Source: a candidate division WWE3 bacterium (lineage in GTDB: Bacteria; Patescibacteriota; WWE3; UBA101185; UBA10185). Taken from it: a stretch of 64,000 nucleotides of DNA. Numbering within the stretch: position 1 is the stretch's first letter; each line of letters starts with the position of its first letter. Positions 2-56,207 of this stretch are shown in pieces. The notes beneath the pieces were generated by a model. It ran no database searches. It was not told where the DNA came from and was given only the letters and a program-made list of their open reading frames with translations. Location: positions 91,971-155,970 of the forward strand of contig JAAZNV010000006.1 of assembly GCA_012798115.1 (NCBI GenBank), read 5' to 3'. Position numbers and translations under genes: made by a program.

Positions 2-1111
2 GTATTGGGAGAGGATGTTGGAGGTAGGGTAGTGGCTTATGACATTGGAAAGATGCCTCACCTTTTAATAGCTGGAACAACAGGATCTGGTAAATCTATA
101 TTTATTCATAATTTGTTATTTTCAATTTTATTTAGAGCAACTCCCCAAGAGGTTAAGTTTATAATCATTGATCCTAAGAGAGTTGAGCTTATTCATTATG
201 AAGGTATTCCGCATCTTTTAACTCCAGTTGTTACTGATATGGATAAAGCTCCTTCTGTTTTCAGATGGGCTGTAGATGAAGTGGAAAGAAGATATAAATT
301 ATTTGAACAAGCTAGAGTAAGAAATATAGAAGGATATAATGAAAAGTCTGGTATTCAAGTTATGCCATACATAGTTATTGTGGTAGATGAACTAAGCGAT
401 ATTATGGTTAGAGATCCTGCTGGAGTAGAAAAAAGTATTATTAGAATTGCTCAACTTGCAAGAGCAACAGGTATCCATTTAGTTTTAGCAGTTCAAAGAC
501 CCTCAGCTGACATTATAACAGGGCTTATTAAAGCAAATATTCCTTGTAGAGCTGCCTTCCAAGTTCTAAGTCAAATAGATTCAAGAGTAATAATTGATCA
601 ACCAGGCGCTGAAAAGCTTCTTGGAAAAGGAGATATGCTTTTTGTTCCTCCAGATGTGATGAAACCAATGAGACTTCAGGGGGCTTATATCTCAGATAAA
701 GAAATTGGTGATCTTGTAGAATACTTAAAAGCTCAAGGTATGGAACCAGATTATAAAGAAGAAGTGTTGAGAACTCCTACAGATTCTTCAAAAAGAGGAG
801 GGTCTTCTGAATGGGGTAATGAGGTAGATGAACTTTTTGATCAAGCTGTTGATATTGTTATATCAGCAGGAAAGGCTTCTGCATCTCTTCTTCAAAGGAA
901 ACTTTCAATTGGTTATGCAAGAGCTGCAAGAATAATTGATGAAATGGAAGAAAAGGGAATAATTGGACCGGAGGTAAGTGGTAGTAGAGGAAGGGAAGTT
1001 ATGGTTGATGATACTCCTAGTGGCCTTAACAAATCAGATGCAGATCCTGGGTATGGACCTGAGGATTTTACTGATGAAGATTTCCCAAGAAATGATAATA
1101 TTGTGAATTAA
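2..1111 (+). CDS. ftsK: DNA translocase FtsK/SpoIIIE, C-terminal motor plus gamma domain (5' end truncated by window edge)
   Basis: Walker [13 protein letters not shown], Walker [12 protein letters not shown]-terminal winged-helix gamma domain [29 protein letters not shown]; reading frame runs off the window start. Confidence 0.85.
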
Positions 1112-2109
1112 AGTTTTATTTCTTCATCGACAAACTCATCTAGGTTACCGCTCAATACTTCTTCCGGGCTAGAACTCTCAACATTTGTTCTCAAGTCCTT
1201 TACCAATTTGTATGGGTGTAGAACATAATTTCTAATTTGATTTCCCCACCCAGGTGTTTTGTACTCACCCTTCAATTTTTTGGTTTCCATTAAAGATTTT
1301 TCTTCTTCTATTTGATAAAGCTTTGACTTTAATACTTTTAAAGCTTTTTCTCTGTTTTTTCCTTGATATCTTTCTTCTTGGCACTCCACAACAATTCCAG
1401 ATGGTTTGTGTTTTAATCTAACTGCAGTTGATACTTTGTTAACATTTTGACCACCTTTTCCTCCAGATCTAAAAAATTCCCATTCTAAATCTTCTTCTTT
1501 TATATTTAACTCAATATCATTATCAATAAGAGGTATTACTTCAACAAGAGCAAAAGATGTTTGTCTTAAATTATCTGCATTAAAAGGAGATTGTCTAACA
1601 AGTCTATGTACACCAGATTCTCTTTTTAAGAATCCATAAGAATAACTTCCTTCAACTTCAAAAACTACGGACTTTATTCCTGCTTCATCCCCTGGAATCT
1701 TAATAATTTCTGTTGTTCTCCAGTCTTTCCTCTCACAATACCTTAAATACATTCTCAAAAGCATTTCTACCCAATCATTTGCTTCAGTTCCTCCTTGTCC
1801 AGCATGTATTGATAATATTGCATTTCCTTTATCGTGTTTTCCAGATAAGTATGTTTTAAGCTCTAGCTTTTTAGCTTCTTCTTCGAAGTTTTTAATTTCA
1901 TTGTTATCTAGATACAACTCAAGTATCTCATAATCTTCTATTTCTTTTTTTAAGCTAGCTAATTCTTTAGTTAGTTCTTGGCCTTCTTCCCACTTTTTCC
2001 ACGTTTCTTCGTTTTTAAGTTTTTCTTTTATACTTAATATTCTCTGCTTTTTCTCATCAATTCTTAGTGATTTATTCAGCTTTTGAAGTCTTTGTTTCTG
2101 TTCTTCCAT
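1108..2109 (-). CDS. prfB: peptide chain release factor 2
   Basis: SPF tripeptide (RQSPFNADN) and GGQ motif ([17 protein letters not shown]); one uninterrupted frame with no internal UGA frameshift site. Confidence 0.85.
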
Positions 2110-2152
2110 GCGAAGATTATATATTAAAGGAAAGATTAATGAAAACTTTGTT

Positions 2153-4717
2153 TTAGTTAAATACCTCAGTACCTAGCAATAAGCTGTCCCCAGCCTTTAC
2201 TTCCTTTTTAAGTATTTTAACTGCTAAATAAGATTCTACTGAGTCTTCTATTGCTCTGGCTAAGGGTCTTGCTCCCCATTGAGGGCTATATCCTCTTTTA
2301 ATGAGTTCTTCAACTAGCTCTGGCTTGAAACTTAATTTAATTCCTTTTTCTTCTGCTCTACTTGTAACTTTTTTTAGCATTAACTTTGTTATCTCTCTCA
2401 TGTTTTCAACTGATAAAGGGTTAAATACTATAATTCCTGTGTATCTGTTTAAAAGTTCTGGAGCAAATTTATTCCTAATGTCAGTCATTGCTGCCTTAGT
2501 CATTTGATCGTATGTACCTTTTGCTTCAAAAACTGTTTGAATAGATCTTGTTCCAACATTGCTTGTACATATAATAATTGAGTTAGTAAAGTTAGCTATA
2601 TTTCCAGATGTGTCTGTTAATCTTCCTTCATCTAACACTTGTAAGAACATTAAAAGAATATTAGGATGTGCTTTTTCTATTTCATCTATCAAAATTAATC
2701 CAAATGGTTTTGACCTTACACTGTCCGTTAACGTTCCATTTATGGAGCCATCTGGTGATCCAATAAGCCTATTTATACTGTCTAATTGTTGATATTCACT
2801 CATATCTAATCTAATCATGTCCTCCTCATTTCCAAAGTAGCTTGATGCTAAAGCCTTTGCTGTTTCTGTTTTTCCTACACCAGTTGTTCCAACAAACAAG
2901 AAGCTTGCTATTGGCTTCTTTTCATCTCTTATTCCAGTTCTTGCTCTTTGAAGAGCAGCTGCAACTTTTTCAAGAGCTTGATCTTGACCAATTACTCTTT
3001 TTTTCATCTCAGATTCAATATTTAAAAGTTTGACTGCATCGTCTTGAGTAATGGTGGTAATTGGAACATTTGTCATTTCGGAAACTTCCTTGGCAACGTC
3101 TTCTGAGGTTAATATTTTTGTAGATTCTTTAACTGATACTGCAGATCTGTTTAGTATATCTATAGCTTTATCAGGAAGAACTCTTTCTTGGATTAATTCT
3201 TCTGATAGCTCTACACTTTCTACAACAGCAGGAAATGTTATAAATGTCTTGTATTCATCTTCATATTTTCTTGCAATGTATTTAAGTATTTCAATAGTAT
3301 CTAACTTTGAGCTTTGATTTAACTCAATAATTTGGAAAAGTCTAGAAATAACTTCGTTTGGTTCAATATATTTTCTGTAATTTGATATTGATGTAGCACC
3401 AATAAATCTAATCTTGTCGCTTACTAGGTAATTTTCAAGCATTGAAAAAATTGTTGAGGAATCCCCATCCTTCTCTCCTAATCCAGTTACTAAATTCTGT
3501 ATCTCATCTATAAATAGTATTATGTCTCCAGATCCTTCTGCATCATCAAGCACACTAGTAAGCCTCTTTGCAATTCCTCCAGCGTTTTCTGCTCCAGAAA
3601 TTAAGGATCCTACATCCAAACTTACAATTCTTTTGTTATGTAGTGTTTTATACTCAGTGCCACATATTATTCTGTAAGCAATACCTTTAAGAATAGAGGT
3701 TTTTCCACTTCCTGGCTCTCCAATAATTAAAATGTTTCCTTTGTTTCCATCAAGCATTTCAGCAATTTGTTTTATTTCTTCTTCTCTTCCTATAATTCTA
3801 TCCACCCTTCCTTTTTGTACTTCTTTTGTGATGTCAAGAGAAACCTTATCTAAAGTAGGGGTTACTCTTCCCAACATTCCTTTTCCTATTCCTCCTAAAG
3901 GACTTCTTTCGTAATTTTCTTGCCATATGTACACTTTTGATAAATACTCTCTTTCCTCAACTATCCATGAAGCTGTTTGTTTTATGGTTTCAACATCAGA
4001 GTTAAAGGAAGACAGTATTGTAGAGATATTAGGAATATTTGTTATTACAGATGTAAATAAATGTTCTAATTCGACATACCTAGATTTATTTTCATTTGCT
4101 AAATCAAAACTTTGTTTCTCAATATTATTAGTTTTCATTTCTGTAATATTACTGAGCTTTTCTATTAACTCTTTATTATCCAGCTCAGACTTTCTTAAAA
4201 GGTAGCTTATACTTTTATCTTTTATAATCTTGTTTATAGCATTCTTGGGATTTTTGATTAAAAGTTTTAAGTAGTACTTTGTTTTAGGTCTAAAGGATTT
4301 TATGTACTTGCTGTCTTTGATATCTTCAATCTTCCTTTCTGGTGTATTTAGATTTGATACTGCCCAAATAAGGTAAAGAACTACAAAGAAAATAAATGTT
4401 GCTTCAAGCGAGTAGTATCCTATGATTAGAGGGATAGCAAGCCAAACTATTGGGATTAGTACACAAATGATTAATATTGCAGTCATGAAGAGAAGGCCTA
4501 CAGCAATCATAAGTATCCTTGCAACAAAGCTCATAACTCTTCCTGGTATCGTACGTATACCATACAAGGGAACAAATAAAAGTCTAATATTGGTTAAAAA
4601 GGATAGCTCATTGTTAGCTACTGCTAGAAACGTTGTAGCTATATTAAAAGCCTTAGCAGGTCCTTTTGTTGCCCACCAAGCTAAGAACTTATGTGGCAGT
4701 TTAAACGAGTAGGGCAT
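2153..4717 (-). CDS. Clp/Hsp100-family double AAA+ ATPase with N-terminal polytopic membrane anchor
   Basis: N-terminal ~130 aa strongly hydrophobic (about 4 TM). AAA1 Walker [15 protein letters not shown]2 Walker [15 protein letters not shown], Walker [12 protein letters not shown]. No ClpB M-domain or IGF loop evident. Confidence 0.75.
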
Positions 4718-4770
4718 ATATTAAAGAATATCAAATACAGGAGATTTAGGGTATATCTATTTGATAAACA

Positions 4771-5229
4771 TTAAAGAAACCTTTTAATAGCTCGTCCGAG
4801 TAAAAATCCTAAAGGAGCATAGAAAGAAATACTTAAGAATTTATAGGAAGATATTGTTCTTGTTATTAGTCCTAGATATGGAATTACTAAAATCACTTTT
4901 CCAATTATTTCAGATTCAATGATGGGATAAGGGTCTTCAAATGTATTATTGTCTCCTTTAGTGATAAAAAGGTTCTTGTTATGAAAAGAATAAATATTAA
5001 TTATTCTGTGAGTTATTAGATTTGGGATTTGAGGTGTTTTGTATACAATTATGTCTCCTGTCTTTAGCCCGCTCATTTTATTTATTTTAATTGCTATGAC
5101 AGCAGATCCTAGCTTTAAACTTGGTTCCATTGAAGATGTAGCTATTTCGTATAGTTTCAGATTTTTAGAACAAGTAATTGCTGTTAGAACTATCATTAAT
5201 ATTTTTAAAGCCTGAAAAGCTATTTTCAT
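4771..5229 (-). CDS. SipW-type (ER/archaeal-type, S26B) signal peptidase I
   Basis: N-terminal TM, catalytic SSMEPSL motif, conserved ITHRII and GDNN segments typical of SipW/Sec11-like peptidases. Confidence 0.7.
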   Translation of the reverse strand: MKIAFQALKILMIVLTAITCSKNLKLYEIATSSMEPSLKLGSAVIAIKINKMSGLKTGDIIVYKTPQIPNLITHRIINIYSFHNKNLFITKGDNNTFEDPYPIIESEIIGKVILVIPYLGLITRTISSYKFLSISFYAPLGFLLGRAIKRFL

Positions 5230-5271
5230 GTTTTTAATTCGCCTTCCCGGGTAAAGCGATATTGTAGATCT

Positions 5272-5859
5272 CTACAATTGAATAGCCTCAAATTCAAAGT
5301 CAAACACTGCTGTAGATCCTTGTTGATCATTTCCTAAGGTTGGAGCAGAAAACCTTAGTATTAAAGGCATTTGCTGTCCTGCTCCTATTTCTCCAAGATC
5401 AAATCCTTCTGTTTTCCATTTTGTTATAGTTTTCTTGCCAAGAGATACCCCTTCCTCGCCAGAATCAACAACTCCATTAGAATTTAAGTCGCTCCATGGT
5501 ATCACTTCCACTTGGATGTCTGATCTGAGATCGTCTGGATCGTTTGCAGTTTCATAGTATGCGTTTGTTACTAATCCTAACTTTGAAGTTCCATTATTTA
5601 ATATCTTTATCAAATAGTCTTGAGTCCACGTTGGAGATATGTTACTAAAGTTAGGGCCTGTGAGTTCATCTGTGAGATTTGATGAGTTTGCTTCAAGAGT
5701 TATATTACTTAGAAACTTAATATCTGCGCTTCCTGCACTAAACGTTGATCCTAGAACCTTTCCTTTGTCTGTAAAAGCTGCATAGGTTACTCCAGCTGCT
5801 AAACTAGATATAAGTATTATTGGTCCAAGGAGATACAGTAAGTTTTTTGTTTTAAGCAT
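5272..5859 (-). CDS. TasA/camelysin-like secreted protein carrying a SipW-cognate-class signal peptide
   Basis: Signal peptide followed by AAFTDKGKVLGSTFSAGS, matching the TasA AAFNDIKS...ATFASG cleavage region; located directly downstream of the SipW-type peptidase. Confidence 0.6.
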   Translation of the reverse strand: MLKTKNLLYLLGPIILISSLAAGVTYAAFTDKGKVLGSTFSAGSADIKFLSNITLEANSSNLTDELTGPNFSNISPTWTQDYLIKILNNGTSKLGLVTNAYYETANDPDDLRSDIQVEVIPWSDLNSNGVVDSGEEGVSLGKKTITKWKTEGFDLGEIGAGQQMPLILRFSAPTLGNDQQGSTAVFDFEFEAIQL

Positions 5860-5882
5860 TTATATCACCACCTTTCTCATAA

Positions 5883-6563
5883 CTAATTACTAAATAATTT
5901 ATGAGCTTTCATACTAAAGAAAGCCTTGTCGGCAACAACTAAATGATCTACAAGTGGAATGCCTATATCCGTTCCTACCTTGGATATCTTTCTTGTTACT
6001 TTAATATCATCTTCGCTTGGGAATGCTTCATTTGATGGGTGGTTGTGAACAATAATTATTGAGTAAGCATTCTTAAGCAAAGCTTTTTTAAACACTTCTC
6101 TTGGGTGTATTAATGTTTCAGTTAATGTTCCTTTTGAAATTACATCTTTTGAAATTAATCTACTTTTTGAGTTCAAAGAGATTAATACAAGATACTCTTG
6201 GTCTTTTCCAATTAAATCTCGTTTTACTAAAGAATAAACATCCCCTGGTTTCTTAATGGCACTTCCAATATTATGATCTTCTTGATCAACTCTTTTAGCT
6301 ATTTCCCCTAGTGCCCTAATACAAGATGCTTTAGCATACCCAATGTTCTTAAAGCTTGTTAACTCTTGAATATCTGCACTTAATAAATTTCTTAATCCTG
6401 AGTATTTATTTAACAAATCTCTAGCAAGGTTTGTAGCAGGGCAGTCTTTTCCACCAGATCTTAAAATTATTGCTAACAACTCTACATTTGTAAGACTGTT
6501 TAAGCCTTTATATATGAGTTTTTCCCTTGGTTTTTCTTCTCTTTGTAAATCTTTAATCTTCAT
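5883..6563 (-). CDS. radC: RadC-like JAMM/MPN domain protein (UPF0758)
   Basis: N-terminal HhH region; C-terminal JAMM motif HNHPSNEAFPSEDD. Confidence 0.8.
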   Translation of the reverse strand: MKIKDLQREEKPREKLIYKGLNSLTNVELLAIILRSGGKDCPATNLARDLLNKYSGLRNLLSADIQELTSFKNIGYAKASCIRALGEIAKRVDQEDHNIGSAIKKPGDVYSLVKRDLIGKDQEYLVLISLNSKSRLISKDVISKGTLTETLIHPREVFKKALLKNAYSIIIVHNHPSNEAFPSEDDIKVTRKISKVGTDIGIPLVDHLVVADKAFFSMKAHKLFSN

Positions 6564-6666
6564 ATCATTTTTATTAAGTAGAATGTAATTTAGTGATCAA
6601 TTTACATCAATATGTATTGTTCTATTTATTTTGGGAAATAGTTGGTGAAAGTTGAGGAATAAGGAT

Positions 6667-6960
6667 ATGGAAAAAAACTTAGGAAAGAAGATAAAAGATA
6701 TTAGAGAAAAGAATAATTTATCTCAAGAAAGATTTGGAAGGAAAATAGGAAAGTCAGGGAAGACTATTTCTGCTTACGAAAAAGGAAGATGTACTCCTTC
6801 GCTTAAAGTTCTTGATTTAATATCCCAAACATATGATGTTTCATTTGTTCATCTCAAGGACAGTAGGGGTACTCAGCTATGGGAAAAGATTCAAGGTGTA
6901 AAAAATGTGCTTGAAGAGATTGAATCAATGATATCGCACAACAAAGATACCTTAAGATAA
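6667..6960 (+). CDS. XRE-family helix-turn-helix transcriptional regulator
   Basis: HTH_3 signature LGKKIKDIREKNNLSQERFGRKIGKSGKTISAYEKG; ATG at 6667 has GAGGAA 7 nt upstream (the ORF track begins at an upstream TTG). Confidence 0.7.
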   Translation: MEKNLGKKIKDIREKNNLSQERFGRKIGKSGKTISAYEKGRCTPSLKVLDLISQTYDVSFVHLKDSRGTQLWEKIQGVKNVLEEIESMISHNKDTLR

Positions 6961-6996
6961 TTAAACTTAAATAGTTGCTTTAGTGATTATTTGTTC

Positions 6997-7554
6997 TTAT
7001 CTCTTTGAATACTGAGGTCTCTTTCTTGCCTTGTGTAGGAATGGCTTCTTTCTTTCCACCATTCTTGGATCTCTAGTTAAGAATCCTTGTTTTCTCAAAG
7101 TTTTATCAAATTCCTCGTCTAGCTTTGCCAAAGCTTTTGATATAGCTAAAACCACCGCATCTAATTGAGAAGACTTGCCTGATCCAGCTACTTTAATACT
7201 GGCTGAGTACTTAGCTTCAGGATGAGATATTCCTATCGTATGAAATGGTCTTACCCATTTTGTTTGTTCAACATTTCCAGAGAAATATTTCTCTATGCTT
7301 TGTCCATTAACAGTAAAATCACCTTTTGCTTCCCATAGAAAAACTCTTGCTGTAGCTTCCTTTCTTCTTCCCGTTCCAGATATAAACCCTTTCTTTAGAG
7401 GCTTGTCTTTTTTAACGACTTTGGTATCTATTAGCTTTTCTGTAATTCCTTCTTTTGTTTCTTCTGTTTCAACGGACATTGTTGCTTCCTCTACGTTTTT
7501 AACTTCCTTTTCTTTTGTGTTCTTCTTGTTTTTTAGTTCTTTCGTCCTTGGCAT
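6997..7554 (-). CDS. rpsI: 30S ribosomal protein S9 with ~60 aa Lys/Glu-rich N-terminal extension
   Basis: S9 core GTGRRKEATARVFL and C-terminus KPFLHKARKRPQYSKR. Confidence 0.9.
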   Translation of the reverse strand: MPRTKELKNKKNTKEKEVKNVEEATMSVETEETKEGITEKLIDTKVVKKDKPLKKGFISGTGRRKEATARVFLWEAKGDFTVNGQSIEKYFSGNVEQTKWVRPFHTIGISHPEAKYSASIKVAGSGKSSQLDAVVLAISKALAKLDEEFDKTLRKQGFLTRDPRMVERKKPFLHKARKRPQYSKR

Positions 7555-7987: not shown

Positions 7988-8498
7988 TTTTCTTTTCTGC
8001 CTTATCTACTTTGACTTCCTTCTTTTCAGTAGGCTTAGCTTTTGTCTTTTTTACCACCTTAGCCTTATTTGTATTTTCTTTCTTTTCCTTCCTTTCTTTT
8101 AGTTCTTTACCTTTACTTATTGATTCAACAAATTCTATTCTGGCTAAAATGGCATTGTCTCCACTTCTGTTTCCTGTTTTAATTATTCTTGTATAGCCGC
8201 CTTTCCTATTTAGAAATTTTGGAGCTACATTATCCATTAAGCTTCTAATAGATTTTTCTGATCTAAGGTGCTTTCTTAAAAGCTTTACAGTGTTAAACTT
8301 AATGAGATTATTCTCTGATTTATTGGCTTTGATTGCTTTCGTTACAAGCTTTTCAACATATGGTTTAACAACTTTTGCCTTAGCTAGAGTTGTGTTAATA
8401 GAGCCTTGCTCAATTAGCTGAGCTGCTAAGTTAGAAATCAAAGCTTTTCTTTGGTCCTTATTTCTTCCTAATGTCTTTTTAACAACTCTATGTCTCAT
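7968..8498 (-). CDS. rplQ: 50S ribosomal protein L17 with Lys/Glu-rich C-terminal tail
   Basis: MRHRVVKKTLGRNKDQRKALISNLA is a typical L17 start. Confidence 0.9.
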   Translation of the reverse strand: MRHRVVKKTLGRNKDQRKALISNLAAQLIEQGSINTTLAKAKVVKPYVEKLVTKAIKANKSENNLIKFNTVKLLRKHLRSEKSIRSLMDNVAPKFLNRKGGYTRIIKTGNRSGDNAILARIEFVESISKGKELKERKEKKENTNKAKVVKKTKAKPTEKKEVKVDKAEKKNEKNTK

Positions 8499-8521
8499 AA
8501 GCTTTGTTTAATTTAATTAAA

Positions 8522-9445
8522 TTACTTTCTAAATCCTTCCTTAGCTAACAACTCCTTTATTTCATCTAAAGATTTTTCACCAATATTTTTAATATCTTCT
8601 AAGTCTTCGTCTGACTTTTGTGCTAGCTCATGAAGTGTATTAATCTTACTCTTTTTAAGAGCATTAATGGTTCTTGTTTGAAGTGGAAGTTCTTCTACTG
8701 AAACGTCTTCTGTAAGTTTTGTTTCTCTAGTTTTTTCTTCTTTCTTTTCTTCAGTTGCTGTTCCTTCTTTCCATTCTTCAAAAGCAACATAGTAGTCTTT
8801 TAATATTTGTGCTGCATTTATCAAAGCTTGCTTTGGAGAAATACTCCCATCAGTTTCTATGGTAAAAATTATCTTATCTAGGTCTGTTCTTCCACCAAAT
8901 CGTGCTGGTTCAATTTCATAATTAGCAGATAAGACAGGAGAAAACAATGCGTCCAAGACTATCACTCCAAGTTTAGATGTTTGTCTTTCTTCCATTGGAG
9001 AGTATCCAACTCCTGGTTCAACTGTTATTTCTGCTTCAAATTTTGACTTTGCATCGGCTAGTGTAGCAATATGTTGATCTTTATTCATAATCTCAACATC
9101 TGATGGAGCTTCAATGTCTTTTGCTGTTACCTTTCCAGGACCCTTTTTATCTATAGTAACTATGACTGGACCTTCTGAATGATTCTTAAACCTTATTTTT
9201 TTTAAGTTTAATGTTAATTCAACAACATCTTCTTTTACTCCTGGCATAGTTGTAAATTGATGATTAGCACCATTTATTTTAACTTGGGTTGCAGCAGCTC
9301 CTTTGATTGATGTCATAAGAACTCTTCTTAGAGCATTTGCAAGGGTGTACCCAAAACCAGTTGGTAATGGTTCAAACGAATAAATACCAATGCCTTTTTC
9401 TTCTTTTACTGTGCTTATCTTTAAATTTTCTTTAGTTAGTTCCAT
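8522..9445 (-). CDS. rpoA: DNA-directed RNA polymerase alpha subunit
   Basis: N-terminal domain FEPLPTGFGYTLANALRRVLMTSIKGAA; C-terminal alpha-CTD helix-hairpin-helix. Confidence 0.9.
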   Translation of the reverse strand: MELTKENLKISTVKEEKGIGIYSFEPLPTGFGYTLANALRRVLMTSIKGAAATQVKINGANHQFTTMPGVKEDVVELTLNLKKIRFKNHSEGPVIVTIDKKGPGKVTAKDIEAPSDVEIMNKDQHIATLADAKSKFEAEITVEPGVGYSPMEERQTSKLGVIVLDALFSPVLSANYEIEPARFGGRTDLDKIIFTIETDGSISPKQALINAAQILKDYYVAFEEWKEGTATEEKKEEKTRETKLTEDVSVEELPLQTRTINALKKSKINTLHELAQKSDEDLEDIKNIGEKSLDEIKELLAKEGFRK

Positions 9446-9463
9446 AAATTCCTCCTTTTAAAA

Positions 9464-10066
9464 TTATCTTGAATAAAATTCAATAATTGATTGTATATCC
9501 ACCCTCTCCTGAAGGTCGTCTTCAGCTGGGAATCTGATATACTTTACGGATTTTTCTTTAAGGTTTGCTTCTAGCCAATCTGGCATCACAAAACCTTCTC
9601 TTAAATGAATCTTTTCAAAAGCTACGGGTTTGATTATATCACCAGCTTTAATTTGCATAGAAGGTATTGTTACCGCCTTGTCATTTACAGAAAACAAGCC
9701 TCTTCTAATATTTTGCCTTGCTTGTGCTCTAGAAACTGCAAAACCGCTTCTATAAACTAAGTTATCAAGTCTTGACTCAAGCTTTTGAATAAGAATTGTT
9801 CCAGACACACCTTTAGTTTTTAAAGCTTCTCTTACATAGTTTCTAAACTGTCTTTCTAAAATCCCATAAATTCTTTTTGCTTTTTGCTTTTCCCTAAGTT
9901 GCCTACCGTATTCTGATAGTGGTTTTCTACTCAGTCCATGTTGTCCAGGTGCTTGAGGTCTTTTTTCAAAAGGACACTTTTCACTCTCACACTTCTTACC
10001 TTTCAAGTTAAGTTTTACACCTTCTCTTCTGCATAACCTACATTTTGCATCAGTGTATCCTGCCAT
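9464..10066 (-). CDS. rpsD: 30S ribosomal protein S4
   Basis: MAGYTDAKCRLCRREG zinc-ribbon start. Start chosen at the internal ATG (10064-10066) matching S4 homologs; the ORF track extends 12 codons further. Confidence 0.85.
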   Translation of the reverse strand: MAGYTDAKCRLCRREGVKLNLKGKKCESEKCPFEKRPQAPGQHGLSRKPLSEYGRQLREKQKAKRIYGILERQFRNYVREALKTKGVSGTILIQKLESRLDNLVYRSGFAVSRAQARQNIRRGLFSVNDKAVTIPSMQIKAGDIIKPVAFEKIHLREGFVMPDWLEANLKEKSVKYIRFPAEDDLQERVDIQSIIEFYSR

Positions 10067-10067
10067 G

Positions 10068-10442
10068 TTAAACCCTTCTTCTGTTTTTAGGTCTACACCC
10101 ATTATGTGGAATGGGAGTTTGATCTGAAATTGATACTATATTTAAACCTGCGCTTTTTAGAGCTTTGATGGAAGATATTCTTCCAAGTCCTGGTCCTTTA
10201 ACAAATACTGCAACTTCTCTAATTCCTGCAGCATATGCCAAAGCTCCGGATTGTTCAGCTGCTTTTGTTGCAGCATAAGGAGTAGCTTTTCTTGATCCTT
10301 TAAACCCTGATTTTCCTGAACTTCCTGTAAATAATGTATTACCTTTATCATCGGTAATGGTAACAATAGTATTGTTCATACCTGCAGTAATAAAAGCCTT
10401 TCCACTTGATGTAATTATTTTTTCTTTCTTTTTCTTTGGCAT
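10068..10442 (-). CDS. rpsK: 30S ribosomal protein S11
   Basis: S11 family similarity, C-terminus PIPHNGCRPKNRRRV. Confidence 0.9.
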   Translation of the reverse strand: MPKKKKEKIITSSGKAFITAGMNNTIVTITDDKGNTLFTGSSGKSGFKGSRKATPYAATKAAEQSGALAYAAGIREVAVFVKGPGLGRISSIKALKSAGLNIVSISDQTPIPHNGCRPKNRRRV

Positions 10443-10443
10443 A

Positions 10444-10830
10444 TTATTTCTTAGTTAATTTCTTTTTCATGCCTCCTACAGTTTTCCTTTTACCTTTTCT
10501 TGTTCTAGCATTTGTCCTTGTTCTTTGTCCTCTAACTGGAAGACCTAAGTAATGTCTTAACCCTCTGTAACTTTTAATTTCCTTCAATCTCCTAATGTTT
10601 GCAGAAACTATTCTTCTTAATTCTCCTTCGATTGGTATTTCCAGCTCTGAAATTTTACTGTTTATTGTTGCTATTTCTGCTTCAGTTAAGTCCTTTGCTC
10701 TTGTATCAGGATTTATTTTTGTTTCTCCAAGTATTTTCTTTGATGTAGAAACACCAATACCTTCAATATAAGTAAGGGCTATTTCTACTCTTTTTTCATT
10801 TGGTATGTCTACACCTTTAATACGAGGCAT
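10444..10830 (-). CDS. rpsM: 30S ribosomal protein S13
   Basis: [26 protein letters not shown] is a typical S13 start. Confidence 0.9.
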
Positions 10831-10835
10831 ATTTA

Positions 10836-10952
10836 TTATCCTTGTCTTTGTTTGTGTTTAGGATTTCTTTTACAAATAACCCTAACTACACCTTTCCTTC
10901 TTATTACTTTGCATTCTCTGCAAATTGGTTTCACTGACGACCTAACTTTCAT
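10836..10952 (-). CDS. rpmJ: 50S ribosomal protein L36 (38 aa; absent from the ORF track because it is below the length cutoff)
   Basis: Hand translation of the minus strand gives [38 protein letters not shown], the C-x2-C...C-x4-H L36 signature. Confidence 0.85.
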
Positions 10953-10980
10953 ACTTGAAAGATCCTTCTTTCACATTTAA

Positions 10981-11199
10981 TTATTTTAAGCGGAAAGTAA
11001 TTCTACCTCTAGTAAGATCATGAGGAGAGAATTCAACTCTCACTTTATCTCCTACTAAGACTCTTATATGTTGTTTTCTCATTTTTCCTGATATCATAGC
11101 CAAAGCTAATGACTCATCATCAAACTGCACCTTAAACATCCCACTCATAAGAGTTTCTATTACTTTTCCATCTTTTTGTATTACTTCTTTTGTACTCAT
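10981..11199 (-). CDS. infA: translation initiation factor IF-1
   Basis: S1-like OB fold; [30 protein letters not shown]. Confidence 0.9.
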
Positions 11200-11218
11200 C
11201 GTTTAAACGACGCGCTTG

Positions 11219-11247
11219 ATTGTATCAGAGCAAATATTCAAGGTCAA
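11219..11247 (-). promoter_or_regulatory. candidate sigma70-type promoter for the infA-rpmJ-rpsM-rpsK-rpsD-rpoA-rplQ block
   Basis: Minus strand reads TTGACC-N17-TACAAT, about 20 nt upstream of the infA ATG. Confidence 0.4.
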
Positions 11248-11294
11248 TAACTCTTTGACCTATGGATCATATGTTATCAAACATTGTTGAAAAA

Positions 11295-11345
11295 GCAATA
11301 AAAAAGATCCCCTTCGATATTTCTCCCGAAGGGGTTTGTGTATTT
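11295..11345. terminator. bidirectional intrinsic terminator
   Basis: GC stem CCCCTTCG...CGAAGGGG (11309-11334) with a T-rich tract on the plus strand (TTTGTGTATTT) and an A-run on the other side (T-run on the minus strand). Confidence 0.6.
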
Positions 11346-11374
11346 CATAAATAACTTAGATCGAATCTTGTTAT

Positions 11375-11854
11375 TTATACGAAAATATCAGGGTTTGCTT
11401 CTACATACCTAGATAGCCATTTTAATATCTCTGTTGATATATCTTCTTCCTTTATGACTTCATAGAGTACGTCTTGCTGCACAATTCTACTTTCATCTTT
11501 AAGCACAAAAATTGGTCCGTTTATTCCCATGAAAAGGTCTATGGAAATATCTTCCTGGTTTGCATAGTTTTTGCTTCTAATACCAAAACTCTGGCCGTAG
11601 ACTCTGGGGTAGGATACCAAAGTTGAAAATTCAGGAGACACTTCATCTGGAAAGATCACCGTTATTGGATTTATCTCTTGAACCAGAGTCCTTTCGTATT
11701 CTTTAAGTAAGGAGAGAACATCTCTCTGATGAAACCAGACCTCTTTGGTATTAACCTTCATATGCTTTACGATTTCTTTTAGCAGATTACAAGCTGGTGA
11801 GGACCAAGTACTTAAAGAGCTAACAACTGTATCTATCTGCAGCTGTTTATTCAT
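11375..11854 (-). CDS. hypothetical protein (no recognisable domain)
   Basis: 159-aa ORF between the infA promoter region and serS; followed on its own strand by the 11309-11334 hairpin plus T-run. Confidence 0.5.
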   Translation of the reverse strand: MNKQLQIDTVVSSLSTWSSPACNLLKEIVKHMKVNTKEVWFHQRDVLSLLKEYERTLVQEINPITVIFPDEVSPEFSTLVSYPRVYGQSFGIRSKNYANQEDISIDLFMGINGPIFVLKDESRIVQQDVLYEVIKEEDISTEILKWLSRYVEANPDIFV

Positions 11855-12047
11855 CTTCTCTTCGTTTTTCTATATTTCGGATTTTTCTTTTTCTTTTAAT
11901 CCCTTTTGAATCGCTTCTTCAACACGCTCTGATAGGTTCATTTTTTCTCCTTTTATAGTTTATTGATCAGGATCCTACTACAGAGTTGTTGAAGTATCAA
12001 ATCAATATATTGAGAGCTAAATAAAATCAGGATATACTCTAGGAGAC

Positions 12048-13316
12048 GTGTTAGATATTAACTATATAAAAGAAAATAAAGAAAAGGTAAAAAAAGCTAT
12101 CATTGATAAAAGATTAGACGGGACTATTGATATAGACAAACTTCTAAAAGTGTACGAAGAATATCTTTCTTTGTTAAAGAAAGTTGAAATAGAAAGAAGC
12201 AATAGAAATAAAATATCTGAAGAAGTTGCTAAAGCTAAACCTTCTGAGAAGGAAAAATTTATTCAAGAAGCAAAGGTAATAAAAGATGTACTTCAAAGGA
12301 TGGAAAAAGAGTTAGAAGAATTGAAGTCTAGATTGGACAATATGTTGCTTTGGGTTCCTAATGTTCCTGCTGATGATGTACCTGTTGGGAAGGATGAAAC
12401 AGGAAATGTTGAAATTAAGAAGGTTGGGAAGATAAAAGACTTTAAATTTGAACCTAAAGATCATGTAGAATTGGGGAAATTACTAGATATTATTGATATC
12501 GATAGGGGAGCAAAGATTGCAGGGTTTAGAGGGTATTTTTTAAAAAACGAAGGGGCTATTCTTGAACAAGCAATATTAAGATATGCATTTGAATATATGA
12601 TCAAGCAAGGTTTTACCTTCATGAGTGTTCCTTGGATGGTAAATCCTGGTTTTTTTACCGGAACAGGGTATTTCCCTTGGGGGGAAAATGATCATTATAG
12701 AGTGGATGATAAAGCATTAATTGGAACTGCAGAAGTATCTTTAACTTCATATTATGCAGGTGAGACGTTAGAAGAAAAAGACCTTCCAGTAAAACTTGTT
12801 GCATTAAGCCCTTGCTTTAGGAAAGAGATTGGAGCTTATGGGAAAGATACTAAAGGAATATTTAGACTTCATCAGTTTTATAAAGTGGAACAAGTTGTTC
12901 TTTGTGAAGCAAGTGAAGACACATCAAGAAAGTGGCATGAACAAATGCTTGGTTTTTCAGAATCAATTCTTGAAGGTTTAAGTCTCCCATATCGTGTACT
13001 TCTTATGTGTACTGGGGATATCGGAGCAGGGCAAAGGAAAAAATATGATATTGAGACTTGGTTTCCTTCTCAAAAAATATACAGAGAAACTCACTCTGAC
13101 TCATACTTTTTAGATTTTCAATCAAGAAGACTAAATATTAAATACAAAGCAAAGGATGGAAGTTTAAAATATGTTCATACGTTAAACAATACAGTAGCTG
13201 CTACTCCAAGGCTTCTTGCGGCAGTTATGGAAAACTATCAAAAGAAAGATGGATCTATTGAAATTCCTAAAGTATTAAGAAAGTATACAGGTTTTAAGAA
13301 GATAGTACCTAAATAG
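12048..13316 (+). CDS. serS: seryl-tRNA synthetase
   Basis: N-terminal coiled-coil MLDINYIKENKEKV; class II core (motif 2/3 region FRKEIGAYGKDTKGIFRLHQF); GTG start preceded by AGGAG. Confidence 0.9.
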   Translation: MLDINYIKENKEKVKKAIIDKRLDGTIDIDKLLKVYEEYLSLLKKVEIERSNRNKISEEVAKAKPSEKEKFIQEAKVIKDVLQRMEKELEELKSRLDNMLLWVPNVPADDVPVGKDETGNVEIKKVGKIKDFKFEPKDHVELGKLLDIIDIDRGAKIAGFRGYFLKNEGAILEQAILRYAFEYMIKQGFTFMSVPWMVNPGFFTGTGYFPWGENDHYRVDDKALIGTAEVSLTSYYAGETLEEKDLPVKLVALSPCFRKEIGAYGKDTKGIFRLHQFYKVEQVVLCEASEDTSRKWHEQMLGFSESILEGLSLPYRVLLMCTGDIGAGQRKKYDIETWFPSQKIYRETHSDSYFLDFQSRRLNIKYKAKDGSLKYVHTLNNTVAATPRLLAAVMENYQKKDGSIEIPKVLRKYTGFKKIVPK

Positions 13317-14913: not shown

Positions 14914-17466
14914 ATGTTTGGTGGTATTTTTGATTCTAATGAAAAACAAATAAAAAAGCTTAAACCTCTTTTAGATAAAGTTAATGGTTTTGAAGAATCT
15001 GTAAAAAAATTAACTTCAGAACAAATAAAAGAAAAAACAAACTATTGGAAAGAAGAATTAAAGAGACTAAGTGATGAAGAAAAAGAAAAATATTTAGATA
15101 ATATTCTTCCAGAAGCTTATGCTCTTGTTAGGGAATCTGCGCTTAGAACATTAAATCAAAGACATTTTGATGTTCAAATATTAGCTGGGATTGTACTTCA
15201 TCAAGGAAAAATTGCAGAACAAAAAACAGGAGAAGGAAAGACTTTAACAGCTACTCTTCCTTTGTATCTTAATTCATTAACTGGAAGTGGGGTTTCTCTT
15301 ATTACTCCAAATGATTATCTTGCAAGGCATGGAGCTGGTTGGATGGGTTCTGTTTATAACTATTTAGGAGTTAGTGTTGGGGTAATAATGCAAGAAAGAG
15401 CTTTTGTATTTGATCCTAACTTTGAAGGCAATGAATTTGAAGATTCTTATTCTATTCATTTAAGGGAAGTTTCAAGACAGCAAGCTTATCAATGTGATGT
15501 TATATATGGAACTAATTATGAGTTTGGATTTGATTATTTAAGAGATAACATGGTGGGAAGGTTAAAAGATATGGTTCAAACCAACCCTAATGGTGACTGG
15601 GGAGTGCATAATTTTGCAATTGTCGATGAAGTTGATTCCATCTTAATTGATGTAGCTAGAACCCCACTTATTATATCTGCAGCAGACCAAAAACCTAGTG
15701 AAAGGTATCACCAATCAAATACTATTGTTAAATCCCTTATTAAAGATACTGATTATGAGCTTGATGAAAAGTATAGAAATGTAACATTGACTGATCTTGG
15801 AATAAGAAGGGTAGAAAGGCTTTTAGGAATAGATAATCTTTATGAACAAGATTTTGAAATGGTTCATTTAATTGAACAAGCATTAGCTGCAAATACTTTG
15901 TATGAAAAAGATAGGGATTATGTTGTTAAAAATGGAGCTGTTGTTATTGTTGACCAGTTTACTGGGAGACTTCTCCCAAACAATAGATTTTCGCATGGAC
16001 TTCATCAAGCTATAGAAGCTAAAGAGGGTGTAGTCATACAGCAAGAATCAAAGACTCTAGCTGAAATTTCGTACCAAAACTACTTTAGGATGTATAAAAA
16101 GCTTGCTGGAATGACTGGTACTGCAGCTACAGAGTCAGAAGAATTTTTTAAGATTTACAAATTAGAAGTTGTAGTAATACCAACCAACAAGGAATGTATA
16201 AGGAAAGATGATAATGATGTTATATACAAGACAGAAGCTGGAAAATTTAAGGCAGTTGCTGATGAAATAGAAGCAAGGCATAAAAAAGGACAACCTGTTC
16301 TTGTTGGTACTACGTCAGTTGATAAGAGTGAACTTCTTCATAGTTTTCTCCAAAGAAGAGCTATTTCTCATGAAATATTAAATGCTAAAAACCATGAAAA
16401 GGAAGCTTTAATTATTGCTCAAGCTGGGAGACTTGGTGCTGTTACTATTTCTACTAATATGGCTGGTAGAGGAGTAGACATTTTACTTGGTGGCGATCCT
16501 CAAGATCCAGAAGAACAAAAGAAAGTTTTAAATGCTGGAGGACTTTGCGTACTTGGAACTGAAAGACACGAGTCAAGAAGAATTGATAATCAATTAAGAG
16601 GAAGATCTGGAAGGCAAGGAGATCCAGGAGAATCAAAGTTTTTTGTTTCACTTCAAGATGACTTGATGAGAATATTTGGTGGGGAGTCTGTTTCTAGAAT
16701 AATGGACAAATTTGGTATTGATGAAAATATTCCTCTTGAAGCAGGAATGGTTTCAAAAGCAATTGAAAATGCTCAAAAGAGAGTAGAAGGGTTTAACTTT
16801 GATAGAAGAAAACAACTAGTTGAAATGGATGACATAATGAACACTCATAGGGAAGTTGTTTATAAAATTAGGAGAAGAATATTAGAGTTAGGAGAAGGAA
16901 AGGAAGAAAACAAAGAGTGGGTAGTAGAAAAGTTATCTGAGTTTTCAGGATTAAGTGAGGATGAATGGGTTAAGAAAGAAAATGAATTTGAAAAAGAAAC
17001 ATGGTTGCAAATTGTTAGTGGTTTTAGTCTTCCAGTTATTGACTTTCTATGGATGGATCATCTTGTTGATATGGATCAAGTTAGAGAAGGAATTGGTTTA
17101 AGAGGGTATGCTCAGAGGGATCCAATGGTTGAGTATAAAAAGGAAGGACATGAAAGATTTGAAATTCTTGTCTCTAAGATTTATGCAATGGTTGGAGAAA
17201 GACTTTTATCTGTTTCTAAGAATGCTCAAGTTAAGAGAGAAGAAATGCAACAAAAAAATATTACTTATCATCATGGGGAGTTAGAAACTGGTGTTTCTCA
17301 AGAAGGAAAAGAAATAGAAAGAAACATTGTGGATGATACTGGAAGAAAAATAAGAGTTGAAAAAGTTGAGTCCGGAAAGGAAAAGATTGGGAGAAATGAT
17401 CCTTGTCCTTGTGGAAGTGGAAAGAAGTATAAGAATTGTCATGGGAGAACACCTAACATTGTTTAG
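14914..17466 (+). CDS. secA: preprotein translocase ATPase SecA
   Basis: DEAD-like motor, preprotein cross-linking domain, C-terminal zinc finger CPCGSGKKYKNCHG. Confidence 0.95.
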   Translation: MFGGIFDSNEKQIKKLKPLLDKVNGFEESVKKLTSEQIKEKTNYWKEELKRLSDEEKEKYLDNILPEAYALVRESALRTLNQRHFDVQILAGIVLHQGKIAEQKTGEGKTLTATLPLYLNSLTGSGVSLITPNDYLARHGAGWMGSVYNYLGVSVGVIMQERAFVFDPNFEGNEFEDSYSIHLREVSRQQAYQCDVIYGTNYEFGFDYLRDNMVGRLKDMVQTNPNGDWGVHNFAIVDEVDSILIDVARTPLIISAADQKPSERYHQSNTIVKSLIKDTDYELDEKYRNVTLTDLGIRRVERLLGIDNLYEQDFEMVHLIEQALAANTLYEKDRDYVVKNGAVVIVDQFTGRLLPNNRFSHGLHQAIEAKEGVVIQQESKTLAEISYQNYFRMYKKLAGMTGTAATESEEFFKIYKLEVVVIPTNKECIRKDDNDVIYKTEAGKFKAVADEIEARHKKGQPVLVGTTSVDKSELLHSFLQRRAISHEILNAKNHEKEALIIAQAGRLGAVTISTNMAGRGVDILLGGDPQDPEEQKKVLNAGGLCVLGTERHESRRIDNQLRGRSGRQGDPGESKFFVSLQDDLMRIFGGESVSRIMDKFGIDENIPLEAGMVSKAIENAQKRVEGFNFDRRKQLVEMDDIMNTHREVVYKIRRRILELGEGKEENKEWVVEKLSEFSGLSEDEWVKKENEFEKETWLQIVSGFSLPVIDFLWMDHLVDMDQVREGIGLRGYAQRDPMVEYKKEGHERFEILVSKIYAMVGERLLSVSKNAQVKREEMQQKNITYHHGELETGVSQEGKEIERNIVDDTGRKIRVEKVESGKEKIGRNDPCPCGSGKKYKNCHGRTPNIV

Positions 17467-51858: not shown

Positions 51859-52538
51859 AATTATCTGTTGTGATACCTTGCTATAACGAGAAGAATACTA
51901 TAGAAAAGATAGTAGATTTAGTTAAGGGTGTAGAAAGCATAGAAAAGGAAATAATTATAGTTGATGATGCCTCAAAGGATGGAACCGTAGATGTGCTAAA
52001 GAGCATCGAGAAGAAATATCCTGATATAAAAGTTATATATAAAGAAGTAAACAAAGGCAAAGGTGATACTTTAAAAGTAGGTTTTCAACATACAACTGGA
52101 GATTATGTAATTGTTCAAGATGCTGATCTTGAATACGACCCTCAAGACTACGTAAAGCTCTTAAAGGTTCTTGAAGAAGGAGTAGATGTGGTTTACGGGT
52201 CTAGGTTTTTAGGTAAATACGAAAAAATGACTACCCTTCACTACTTTGGAAATAAGTTTTTAACTTTAGTTACTAATCTTTTGTTTGGGGTAACACTTAC
52301 TGATATGGAAACTTGCTATAAATTAATGCCTGGGGATTTTGTAAGAAAACTTGATATTAAATCATCTAGATTTGAGTTTGAGCCGGAAATAACAGCTAAG
52401 ATACTTAAGTCTGGATTAAAAATAAAGGAAGTCCCCATTTCATATAAGGGAAGAAGTTTTAGTGAAGGAAAGAAGATGACGTGGAAAGATGGTTTTAATG
52501 CTATCTATTCCCTTGTTAAGTTTAAATTTTTTGATTGA
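51855..52538 (+). CDS. DPM1/ArnC-like GT2 polyprenyl-phosphate glycosyltransferase
   Basis: LSVVIPCYNEKNTI, IVDDASKDGT, QDADLEYDP. Confidence 0.8.
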   Translation: MKLSVVIPCYNEKNTIEKIVDLVKGVESIEKEIIIVDDASKDGTVDVLKSIEKKYPDIKVIYKEVNKGKGDTLKVGFQHTTGDYVIVQDADLEYDPQDYVKLLKVLEEGVDVVYGSRFLGKYEKMTTLHYFGNKFLTLVTNLLFGVTLTDMETCYKLMPGDFVRKLDIKSSRFEFEPEITAKILKSGLKIKEVPISYKGRSFSEGKKMTWKDGFNAIYSLVKFKFFD

Positions 52539-52564
52539 AGTTGGTTAAGTTTTGGAAATTAAAC

Positions 52565-54715: not shown

Positions 54716-54720
54716 AAACT

Positions 54721-56205: not shown

Positions 56206-56207
56206 AA

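Follow-up and report, generated by a model that had tools for sequence, protein, structure and literature searches.

The stretch of DNA analysed here, hereafter the window, comprises 64,000 nucleotides (nt) from a candidate division WWE3 bacterium (contig JAAZNV010000006.1, positions 91,971 to 155,970 of the forward strand; G+C 33%). At 2153..4717 of the window, on the minus strand, lies an ATG-initiated open reading frame (ORF) of 854 amino acids plus stop that encodes a membrane-anchored Clp/Hsp100-like ATPase; every part of this gene whose coordinates are given below lies on the same strand. The identical protein is held at NCBI as 'AAA domain-containing protein [candidate division WWE3 bacterium]', on a contig of 252 kb. 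The original prediction, made from the letters of the window, had described a membrane-tethered double-ring Hsp100 with neither an M-domain nor a ClpP-docking loop. That architecture is borne out and recurs in a conserved, lineage-specific family. As judged from its sequence, the protein is a member of an undescribed, Patescibacteria-specific, membrane-integrated class-I Hsp100 subfamily, and it carries all of the features by which the subfamily is defined: an N-terminal module (WW..P ... PL(F/Y)GDYT..GR.IGF..R plus a transmembrane (TM) hairpin), a divergent N-domain, and D1 and D2 rings that lack aromatic pore loops. No description of a membrane-anchored bacterial Hsp100 or of a Patescibacteria Clp family turned up in the literature searched, and Clp and chaperones are not discussed in the paper on the RAAC2 WWE3 genome (PMC3812714).

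Domain architecture and the N-terminal membrane module

By domain content the class-I Clp/Hsp100 core is complete: Pfam recognises AAA (D1) at residues 329-465 (E 6e-21), AAA_lid_9 at 472-559 (E 7e-13), AAA_2 (D2) at 601-759 (E 2e-49) and ClpB_D2-small at 768-846 (E 7e-22). The best NCBIfam models are those of ClpB (TIGR03346, 552.7 bits against an equivalog cutoff of 1232.1), ClpA (TIGR02639, 487.7 against 993.15) and ClpV/TssH (TIGR03345, 444.7 against 884.95); the protein is below the cutoff of each, scoring about half of the curated value. The full-length AlphaFold model has a predicted local distance difference test score (pLDDT) of 84.9, and a model of residues 1-300 one of 84.5. In Foldseek comparisons the AAA+ core superimposes on ClpC, ClpC1 and ClpB protomers (E 1e-41 to 1e-50, target TM-score (TMt) 0.75-0.81, about 570 columns), with the ClpC and ClpC1 protomers the closest structural matches.

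The D1 module and its lid span residues 301-559 (3041..3817), as placed by Pfam, motif conservation, the alignments to ClpC and ClpA and the DSSP assignment of the model. Its Walker A box is GEPGSGKTS (residues 333-341, nt 3695-3721) and its Walker B residues are D404/E405. The D2 module, AAA_2 with ClpB_D2-small, spans residues 560-854 (2153..3040), on the evidence of Pfam, column counts and the list of invariant positions; here Walker A is GTTGVGKTE (residues 610-618, nt 2864-2890) and Walker B is D678/E679. Both Walker A boxes are as originally quoted. Across an alignment of 108 family sequences the Walker A and B motifs of both rings are invariant or nearly so, and in D2 the invariant motifs also include sensor-1 TSN, the arginine finger R758 and sensor-2 GARP.

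The chain begins with a conserved, positively charged cytosolic segment, residues 1-61 (4535..4717), recognised by its conservation, its motif, its helices and its lysine-plus-arginine (K+R) content and hydropathy. It is made up of a long amphipathic helix (8-38), a further helix (40-45) and a loop bearing the motif LLFxPL(F/Y)GDYTxxGRxIGFxxR. It is followed by a predicted two-pass membrane hairpin, residues 62-121 (4355..4534), assigned from hydropathy, charge distribution and the AlphaFold helices. The hairpin is laid out as TM1 (about 66-88), a conserved turn P89-x2-W92-x3-P96, and TM2 (from about 97/103 to 121); the helix ends are approximate, being set by hydropathy, charge and the model. 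Hydropathy of TM grade is confined to residues ~62-121 (Kyte-Doolittle maximum 3.15), and the family profile has two peaks, at ~66-95 and 103-120. The mean number of K+R in the family is 8.3 for residues 1-67, 0.04 for 68-87, 0.4 for 88-102 and 5.8 for 122-145; the 15-residue stretch 88-102 is the one that holds the near-invariant P89, W92 and P96. In the model, helices run from 8 to 38, 40 to 45, 57 to 102 and 104 to 121, the membrane helices having a pLDDT of about 90.

Because of this K+R distribution and the two hydropathy peaks, the anchor fits an N-in/C-in two-pass hairpin, a predicted topology that agrees with the need for the ATPase part to be cytoplasmic. A conserved N-terminal membrane anchor is thus confirmed, but not one of four passes, as had been proposed: hydropathy, the family profile and charge give two, and four TM helices were rejected on the hydropathy and charge analysis. 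Nor did the description of about 130 hydrophobic residues hold, since only ~62-121 are of TM grade and residues 1-61 form the basic segment just described. When the membrane module was compared with the PDB by Foldseek, matches were at noise level only, to the TM domains of ABC exporters (prob <=0.08).

The hydrophobic N-terminus is genuine. The 120 best homologues are 48-83% identical to the protein, nearly all about 855 amino acids long, and cover 99-100% of the query; where databases name them, it is as ClpA, ClpC or 'Hsp100 family, ClpC-type'. In the 108-sequence alignment the mean identity of residues 1-60 is 48%, above the 33% of the membrane segment, and the first in-frame ATG past the TM region is codon 194, which lies within the folded N-domain. 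A mis-called start, one of the outcomes by which the original prediction was to be overturned, is ruled out by these 108 same-length homologues with 99-100% coverage, because the N-terminus is conserved at full length and the next ATG falls inside a folded domain. More broadly, the arrangement could be imagined as an artefact, whether of a mis-called start, of a frameshift that fused a small membrane-protein gene to a soluble clp gene, or of a chimeric assembly. The N-terminal module does occur as a separate gene in other lineages, which means that a fusion event occurred at some point. However, more than 100 independent assemblies, among them the complete genome CP006914, share the same single ORF, of equal length and with 99-100% coverage, and the junction regions are conserved in frame. 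Full-length conservation on this scale already refutes an artefact in practice, and the probability left to it is negligible.

A HMMER profile (hidden Markov model, HMM) of residues 1-300 was searched against 1.84 billion protein cluster representatives and matched 663 proteins at E<=1e-3, 133 at E<=1e-10 and 52 at E<=1e-30. Among the 663 are 47 full-length relatives at 28-49% identity, some of them belonging to Berkelbacteria and to unclassified Patescibacteria. When GTDB species representatives were scanned with one WWE3-type peptide pattern, at least 37 loci were found, the complete genome CP006914 again included; their record titles read WWE3, Patescibacteria or 'uncultured Candidatus Saccharibacteria', while more distant members are named Berkelbacteria, Saccharibacteria and Patescibacteria. 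One 2551-bp contig, JBAZEV010000237.1 (locus L036), was deposited as 'Candidatus Bathyarchaeia archaeon' and has the three WWE3-type genes together, for the secreted protein, the SipW-type peptidase and TM-Clp; it probably represents a fragment from Patescibacteria that was mis-binned.

Alongside full-length sequences and fragments, about 50 of the profile matches are proteins of 90-160 amino acids that align only to profile positions ~5-105 and are Pfam-less; no known Pfam family was found for the N-terminal module or for these stand-alone proteins. An HMM built from 51 stand-alone proteins of about 110 amino acids matches the 854-residue window protein at E 1.3e-26. Where the context is readable, stand-alone genes encoding modules of 110-118 amino acids lie 2-43 nt upstream of Clp-like genes that have TM segments of their own. 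At locus L045 a 113-residue module (26-367) precedes an 837-residue Clp-like protein (371-2884) that matches the family HMM at E 2.6e-168; at L047/L048 a 118-residue module (L047 643-999) precedes a Clp fragment (L047 1042-2460; E 2.4e-62); and at L051, from a Minisyncoccia metagenome-assembled genome, a 110-residue module (8001-8333) is separated by 2 nt from an 831-residue Clp-like protein (8336-10831). The same arrangement is probable at L006, and the contexts of the stand-alone modules at L007 and L046 are too short or too divergent to decide. The existence of both fused and split forms argues that the N-terminal module is a functional partner of the ATPase, beyond a passive anchor. The stand-alone modules (P0210-P0269) form a family of membrane proteins of about 110-125 amino acids in their own right, which shares homology with residues 1 to ~105 of the window protein. 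Among distant members of the Clp-like family, L047, the downstream gene of L007, P0258 and P0266 bear an additional CxxC zinc-ribbon-like segment at the N-terminus.

Between the membrane module and D1 the original prediction had placed a Lys-rich linker. An unstructured linker was rejected by the model helices, Foldseek and hhalign alike: residues 138-262 (3932..4306) are modelled as eight helices and, on this structural and profile evidence, are a divergent Clp N-domain. In a Foldseek search of the PDB the top ~20 matches to these residues are the N-domains of Hsp104, ClpC, ClpC1, ClpB and Plasmodium HSP101, with prob 0.9-0.99 and a target TM-score of about 0.5 at E-values of only 0.14-1. With hhalign, repeat 2 of the B. 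subtilis ClpC N-domain is matched by residues 195-258, and the TPTLDxxxxDLT stretch by residues 284-298 (E 4.5e-5), so that the support for the N-domain is limited to repeat 2. Pfam Clp_N is sub-threshold in the window protein (E 0.07), and PF02861 is recorded in some homologues. A detectable N-domain had been named as an outcome that would count against the original prediction; the domain is there, in divergent form, but the membrane anchor is not refuted by it.

The N-domain is joined to D1 by a connector, residues 263-300 (3818..3931), recognised by the family motif W-Q-(E/D)-D-Y ... GGIGKGM(T/L)GRVTPxLDxxSxDxT. It is the most conserved part of the first 300 residues, with W265, Q266, D268, G275, G276, G278, G280, G283, R284, T286 and P287 invariant or near-invariant. 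Its pLDDT is below 50 when D1 is left out of the model and ~80-84 in the full-length model.

Pore loops, M-domain and ClpP-docking loop

In textbook accounts Hsp100 proteins are soluble machines that thread their substrates, and the tyrosines of their pore loops are regarded as indispensable; in ClpA, ClpB, ClpC and Hsp104 it is this aromatic residue that powers threading. In the window protein the D1 pore loop, residues 374-385 (3563..3598), was located by an ungapped HMMER alignment to S. aureus ClpC and by column counts. Opposite the ClpC stretch AGTKYRGEFEER, KYRG is replaced by ENAG, with Asn at the canonical Tyr position; in the 108 relatives this position is T/S/G/E/N/D and never aromatic. 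The D2 pore loop, residues 653-664 (2726..2761), was located by HMMER alignments to ClpC, ClpE and ClpB. Here GAPPGYVGxxxGG becomes GSPDGSI----NG; GYVG is replaced by G-S-I with a 4-residue deletion, no aromatic residue is present, and the Tyr site (position 658) is occupied by Tyr in 4/108 family sequences. Both pore tyrosines are likewise missing from the 47 distant full-length representatives, some of which keep the canonical D2 loop length with Q/S/H/E in place of Tyr, for example GAPPGQAGYQEGG and GPPPGQPGALEGG. In WWE3 the D2 loop is well conserved though non-aromatic, as [ST]-P-D-G-x-[ST]-[KS]-G. The WWE3 pore loops are Gly/Ser/Thr-rich, and K/R is found at position 377 in 66/108 sequences and at position 660 in 71/108.

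The two AAA+ modules had been called complete. This is correct for their nucleotide motifs, but both modules are without aromatic pore loops, and of the two trans-acting arginines in D1 only one is left, the ERRFQ pair having Leu in place of its second Arg in 100/108. In distant members (L045 371-2884, L051 8336-10831, P0228 and L047 1042-2460) the D1 ring has decayed further: Walker A is seen as GSGRES, and Walker B as IEDIH, FIDQIE, FIDNLE or LEDFE, while D2 is intact there. Of the proposal that the protein acts as a membrane-tethered unfoldase, the tethering is supported, but its functional part is weakened by the loss of the aromatic pore-loop residues in 108 close and 47 distant relatives.

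The M-domain is absent, as predicted, on alignments to ClpC and ClpA and in the AlphaFold model. HMMER aligns S. aureus ClpC 158-433 to residues 284-558 and ClpC 470-783 to residues 535-837, and since these are two separate stretches, the M-domain of ClpC has no counterpart. E. coli ClpA, which is M-domain-free, aligns in a single stretch (residues 291-839 to ClpA 171-724). HMMER found no counterpart of ClpC 433-470 or of the ClpB M-domain, and the model has only short lid helices at 516-549 there.

The position of the ClpP-docking loop, residues 722-738 (2504..2554), was identified by motif search, alignments to ClpB and ClpC, and column variability. The predicted absence of a docking tripeptide withstood both the motif search and the loop alignments. 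No hydrophobic-Gly-Phe/Leu tripeptide (IGF/IGL/VGF/AGF/LGF and similar) was found by motif search. The region aligns without gaps to T. thermophilus ClpB D2 and so is of ClpB-like length, whereas ClpC requires a 1+6-residue insertion at the docking loop (RFAGFGGSSDGQ), which carries FAGFGG. Where ClpE has VGF the window protein has VFE, and the columns of the loop are variable across the family. A tblastn search with E. coli ClpP gave no match in the 64-kb window or in 44 related loci, and no second Clp paralogue was present in the ~583 kb of sequence searched, both surveys covering less than whole genomes.

Gene neighbourhood

Starting 53 nt upstream of the Clp gene is a gene for a SipW/archaeal-type signal peptidase I (4771..5229, minus strand; TIGR02228, 92.8 bits against a cutoff of 51.85). 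Beyond it is the gene for a 195-residue secreted protein (5272..5859, minus strand) with a SipW-cognate signal peptide (…VTYAAFTD…), whose signal-peptide score falls just under the threshold (TIGR04088, 18.3 against a cutoff of 19); the Pfam match to Peptidase_M73 is weak (E 0.068), and only the N-terminus is camelysin/TasA-like. The order on the minus strand is radC, the secreted protein, the signal peptidase, the Clp gene and prfB, with gaps of 42-53 nt, and the block adjoins an S13-S11-S4-rpoA-L17-L13-S9 ribosomal cluster and is syntenic across WWE3. The secreted-protein gene lies upstream on the same strand in 38/38 WWE3-type loci that have enough upstream DNA, and its position is kept in the most divergent of them (L037-L041), where radC and prfB are lost. 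The peptidase gene is upstream of the Clp gene in 27 loci; at L041 the two ORFs overlap, and some WWE3 loci lack the peptidase gene or have another gene in its place. No secreted-protein or peptidase neighbours were found at the distant loci L045, L049, L050 and L051. The association is thus persistent in one lineage and not family-wide, and a functional link between Clp and SipW is treated as a hypothesis. A promoter and terminator scan of 900-7200 performed no better than on shuffled sequence and is uninformative on operon structure.

Several other assignments were considered and rejected. A ClpV of a type VI secretion system does not fit the sub-cutoff TIGR03345 score or the neighbours, which are ribosomal genes, radC, signal peptidase, prfB and ftsK. 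An anti-phage defence ATPase was rejected on the PADLOC results, which held only partial, generic Clp-D2 similarity to DolB and PDC-M37B, and on the housekeeping synteny. A substitute for SecA was likewise rejected, a canonical SecA with DEAD, preprotein cross-linking, wing/scaffold and SEC-C domains being encoded at 14914-17466 on the plus strand; secA often adjoins prfB in Firmicutes. A link to the Pam pilus of the candidate phyla radiation was dropped, the pilus paper making no mention of Clp, AAA, ATPase or signal peptidase.

Some further observations concern the surroundings. In L049, a distant locus, Nramp-prfB-(158-aa ORF)-ftsE-ftsX-M23 follows closely downstream of the Clp gene. Conserved near the Clp block in WWE3 genomes, and outside the window, is a gene for a 357-residue AAA protein whose lid is of the Lon type (PF22667) and for which no protease domain is recorded (L001-L003, 16616-17689, upstream of ftsK/RNase J/UDG); it may be another unusual proteostasis ATPase. 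Within the window, GC skew changes sign near 12 kb (~10000-12100), from negative over 2-12 kb to strongly positive over 12-64 kb, and the change coincides with the passage from minus-strand genes (the ribosomal cluster and the Clp block) to plus-strand genes (serS onward); an origin-like strand switch is one possible cause, and a simple bias in the orientation of the genes another. At 52535-61922 there is an envelope glycosylation gene cluster, made up of a DUF2079 membrane protein (52535-54715), a polysaccharide-biosynthesis/flippase-type protein (54721-56205) and three consecutive PMT_2-type glycosyltransferase paralogues with overlapping ends (57070-58734, 58664-60259 and 60219-61922).

Proposed mechanism and relation to known systems

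The reading favoured here, tentatively and with a probability somewhat short of even, is that the membrane-integrated Hsp100 acts as a D2-driven, non-processive, ClpP-independent remodeller at the inner face of the membrane. The protein would form a hexamer, as its family does, and, given the N-terminal anchor and a spacing of only ~16 residues between TM2 and the N-domain, the N-domain/D1 face of that hexamer would lie directly under the membrane. D2 would be the ATP-hydrolysing motor, with D1 mainly binding nucleotide to hold the ring together; such a structural role for D1 is suggested by the distant relatives in which D1 has lost the Walker B glutamate or the Walker A lysine. Docking to ClpP would not be expected, since the tripeptide is missing, nor would coupling to DnaK, since there is no M-domain, and processive threading of whole proteins is unlikely because there are no aromatic pore paddles. 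ATP hydrolysis would instead power short-stroke, non-processive remodelling at the inner face of the membrane. Its target would be a dedicated membrane-proximal client or partner, held or recognised by the ring of N-domains together with the N-terminal membrane module, the latter being a separate subunit, encoded just upstream, in the related two-gene systems. The protein is probably not the ordinary unfoldase that its database name implies.

Several points weigh against this reading. The retained N-domain, which in all Hsp100s binds substrates or adaptors, would also fit a real unfoldase, and so would the well-conserved, non-aromatic D2 loop of the WWE3 proteins; there are also AAA+ rings that function although the loops of one tier are non-aromatic. 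The Walker A and B motifs of D1 are intact in the WWE3 subfamily, so that D1 may hydrolyse ATP there. Further, the hexamer and its orientation at the membrane are inferred from knowledge of the family, and the mechanism as a whole is drawn from sequence and models, with the client put forward as a proposal.

The main rival is therefore a dislocase of the FtsH or Msp1 type with a weak grip, kept open by the N-domain and the conserved WWE3 D2 loop: a canonical membrane-tethered unfoldase that would pull membrane or pre-secretory proteins through its pore and release them or pass them to a separate protease. An N-terminal anchor would put the D1 entry face at the membrane, as in FtsH and Msp1; the N-domain is kept, both Walker A/B pairs are intact in the WWE3 subfamily, and the AAA+ core can be superimposed on protomers of ClpC and ClpB that have substrate bound (TMt 0.76-0.81). 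Even so, we consider it unlikely, if a serious contender. The aromatic residues are lost from both rings across 155 relatives, with the few D2 tyrosines counted above (4/108) as the exceptions; the variability of the Tyr position (T/S/G/E/N in one ring, Q/S/H/E in the other) suggests that it has no grip function; the D2 loop is shorter by 4 residues and a protease-docking loop is lacking; and the ClpP search of the window and the 44 related loci, a partial test, found no gene. In another reading the substrate at the membrane would be a polymer other than protein, or one of high charge (nucleic acid, for instance, or an anionic polymer of the envelope), translocated or remodelled by polar and basic pore loops that take the place of aromatic ones. 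The Gly/Ser/Thr-rich loops with their frequent Lys/Arg (377 in 66/108, 660 in 71/108) are in keeping with this, as is the dependence of Patescibacteria on scavenged macromolecules (PMC3812714). But the Clp/Hsp100 clade offers no precedent, the basic residues are not invariant, loop lengths vary in the wider family, and Pfam and NCBIfam scans of the 854-residue protein detected no nucleic-acid-binding domain, all of which leaves it very improbable.

Alternatively, the ATPase could be the motor or assembly factor of the neighbouring SipW-type secretion or fibre module in WWE3, movements of its membrane module aiding the export, processing or polymerisation of the adjacent secreted protein. This would loosely resemble the way in which hexameric ATPases of the cytoplasm power the assembly of pili by means of a platform in the membrane. 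The order of secreted protein, (peptidase) and TM-Clp on one strand with 42-53-nt gaps, in all 38 loci with enough upstream DNA, speaks for it, as do its persistence in L037-L041 despite the loss of radC/prfB synteny and the sipW-clp overlap in L041; TasA-family proteins, which form donor-strand fibres, also occur in Patescibacteria (PMC9245690). Yet the association is absent from L045, L049, L050 and L051, the peptidase gene is missing or replaced in some WWE3 loci, and the whole region is a conserved housekeeping block beside ribosomal genes, so that the linkage may be inherited order. In addition, the TasA assignment of the 195-residue protein rests on the signal peptide only, and no ATPase is known to be required by TasA or by archaeal bundling pili (PMC9245690). 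A role of this kind is improbable on balance, although, of the readings compatible with the evidence, a part with the adjacent SipW-type secreted protein holds the most interest. In its fullest form, for which our expectation is similarly low, Patescibacteria would have turned an Hsp100 into a non-threading, membrane-embedded actuator, in which ATP hydrolysis in D2 moves a membrane module of 12 helices by way of the rigid Gly-rich connector and the ring of N-domains, and the work is done on the envelope side, in WWE3 by the export or assembly of the SipW-processed surface protein. If this is true, organisms that spend their lives attached to other cells would possess an envelope machine of a new kind, a two-ring bacterial equivalent of Torsin-like AAA+ action without threading.

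The Hsp100 fold and the ATPase chemistry are already known; what appears new, from the sequence comparisons, is that the protein is integrated into the membrane, that its partner module is separable and that both pore tyrosines have been lost throughout the family. The family is large, conserved and integral to the membrane, and it lacks pore tyrosines, M-domain and ClpP loop yet has fully intact D2 ATPase motifs. If the family is active, either an Hsp100 ring can work without aromatic paddles or its scaffold has been re-used for non-threading work at the membrane. The occurrence of two-gene and fused forms points to a membrane partner that is directly testable. There is also a consequence for annotation, in that hundreds of Patescibacteria genes are automatically named 'ATP-dependent Clp protease ATP-binding subunit ClpA/ClpC', and the ClpP pathway implied by that name is one that the window protein could not serve.

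Among known systems, ClpB/Hsp104 shares with the window protein the N-domain, D1, D2 and ClpB_D2-small and the absence of a ClpP loop, and ClpB is its best NCBIfam match; the window protein differs in having no M-domain and no pore tyrosines, in being anchored in the membrane and in scoring far below the ClpB cutoff. ClpA resembles it in lacking an M-domain, the ClpC/ClpE group provides its best structural matches (ClpC and ClpC1), and the databases name the family ClpA, ClpC or 'AAA domain-containing'. Unlike ClpA, ClpC and ClpE, however, it has neither the IGL/VGF/AGF tripeptide nor the 7-residue insertion of ClpC, its pore loops are non-aromatic and it has a membrane anchor. In FtsH and in Msp1/ATAD1 an N-terminal anchor sets the entry face of the ATPase against the cytosolic side of the membrane, a geometry that the window protein would share. 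Those enzymes are single-ring classical AAA proteins with aromatic pore loops, FtsH having a fused M41 peptidase, whereas the window protein has two Clp-type rings and no peptidase domain in Pfam or NCBIfam. HSP101 of the Plasmodium PTEX translocon is likewise an Hsp100 that acts at a membrane, and its N-domain is among the fold matches to residues 138-262. It is, however, soluble, docks on the EXP2 pore through its D2 side and keeps canonical pore loops and the M-domain, whereas the membrane attachment of the window protein is at the opposite, N-terminal D1 side.

By analogy, the nearest functional precedent may be the torsins. These membrane-associated ATPases are phylogenetically closest to Clp/Hsp100, have an N-terminal hydrophobic segment and lack both aromatic pore loops and an arginine finger; it has been argued that they do not thread substrates processively (PMC5425593). 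They differ from the window protein in being eukaryotic, luminal (endoplasmic reticulum and nuclear envelope) and composed of a single ring, and in taking their arginine from LAP1 or LULL1, whereas the D2 ring of the window protein keeps an arginine finger of its own and every catalytic motif.

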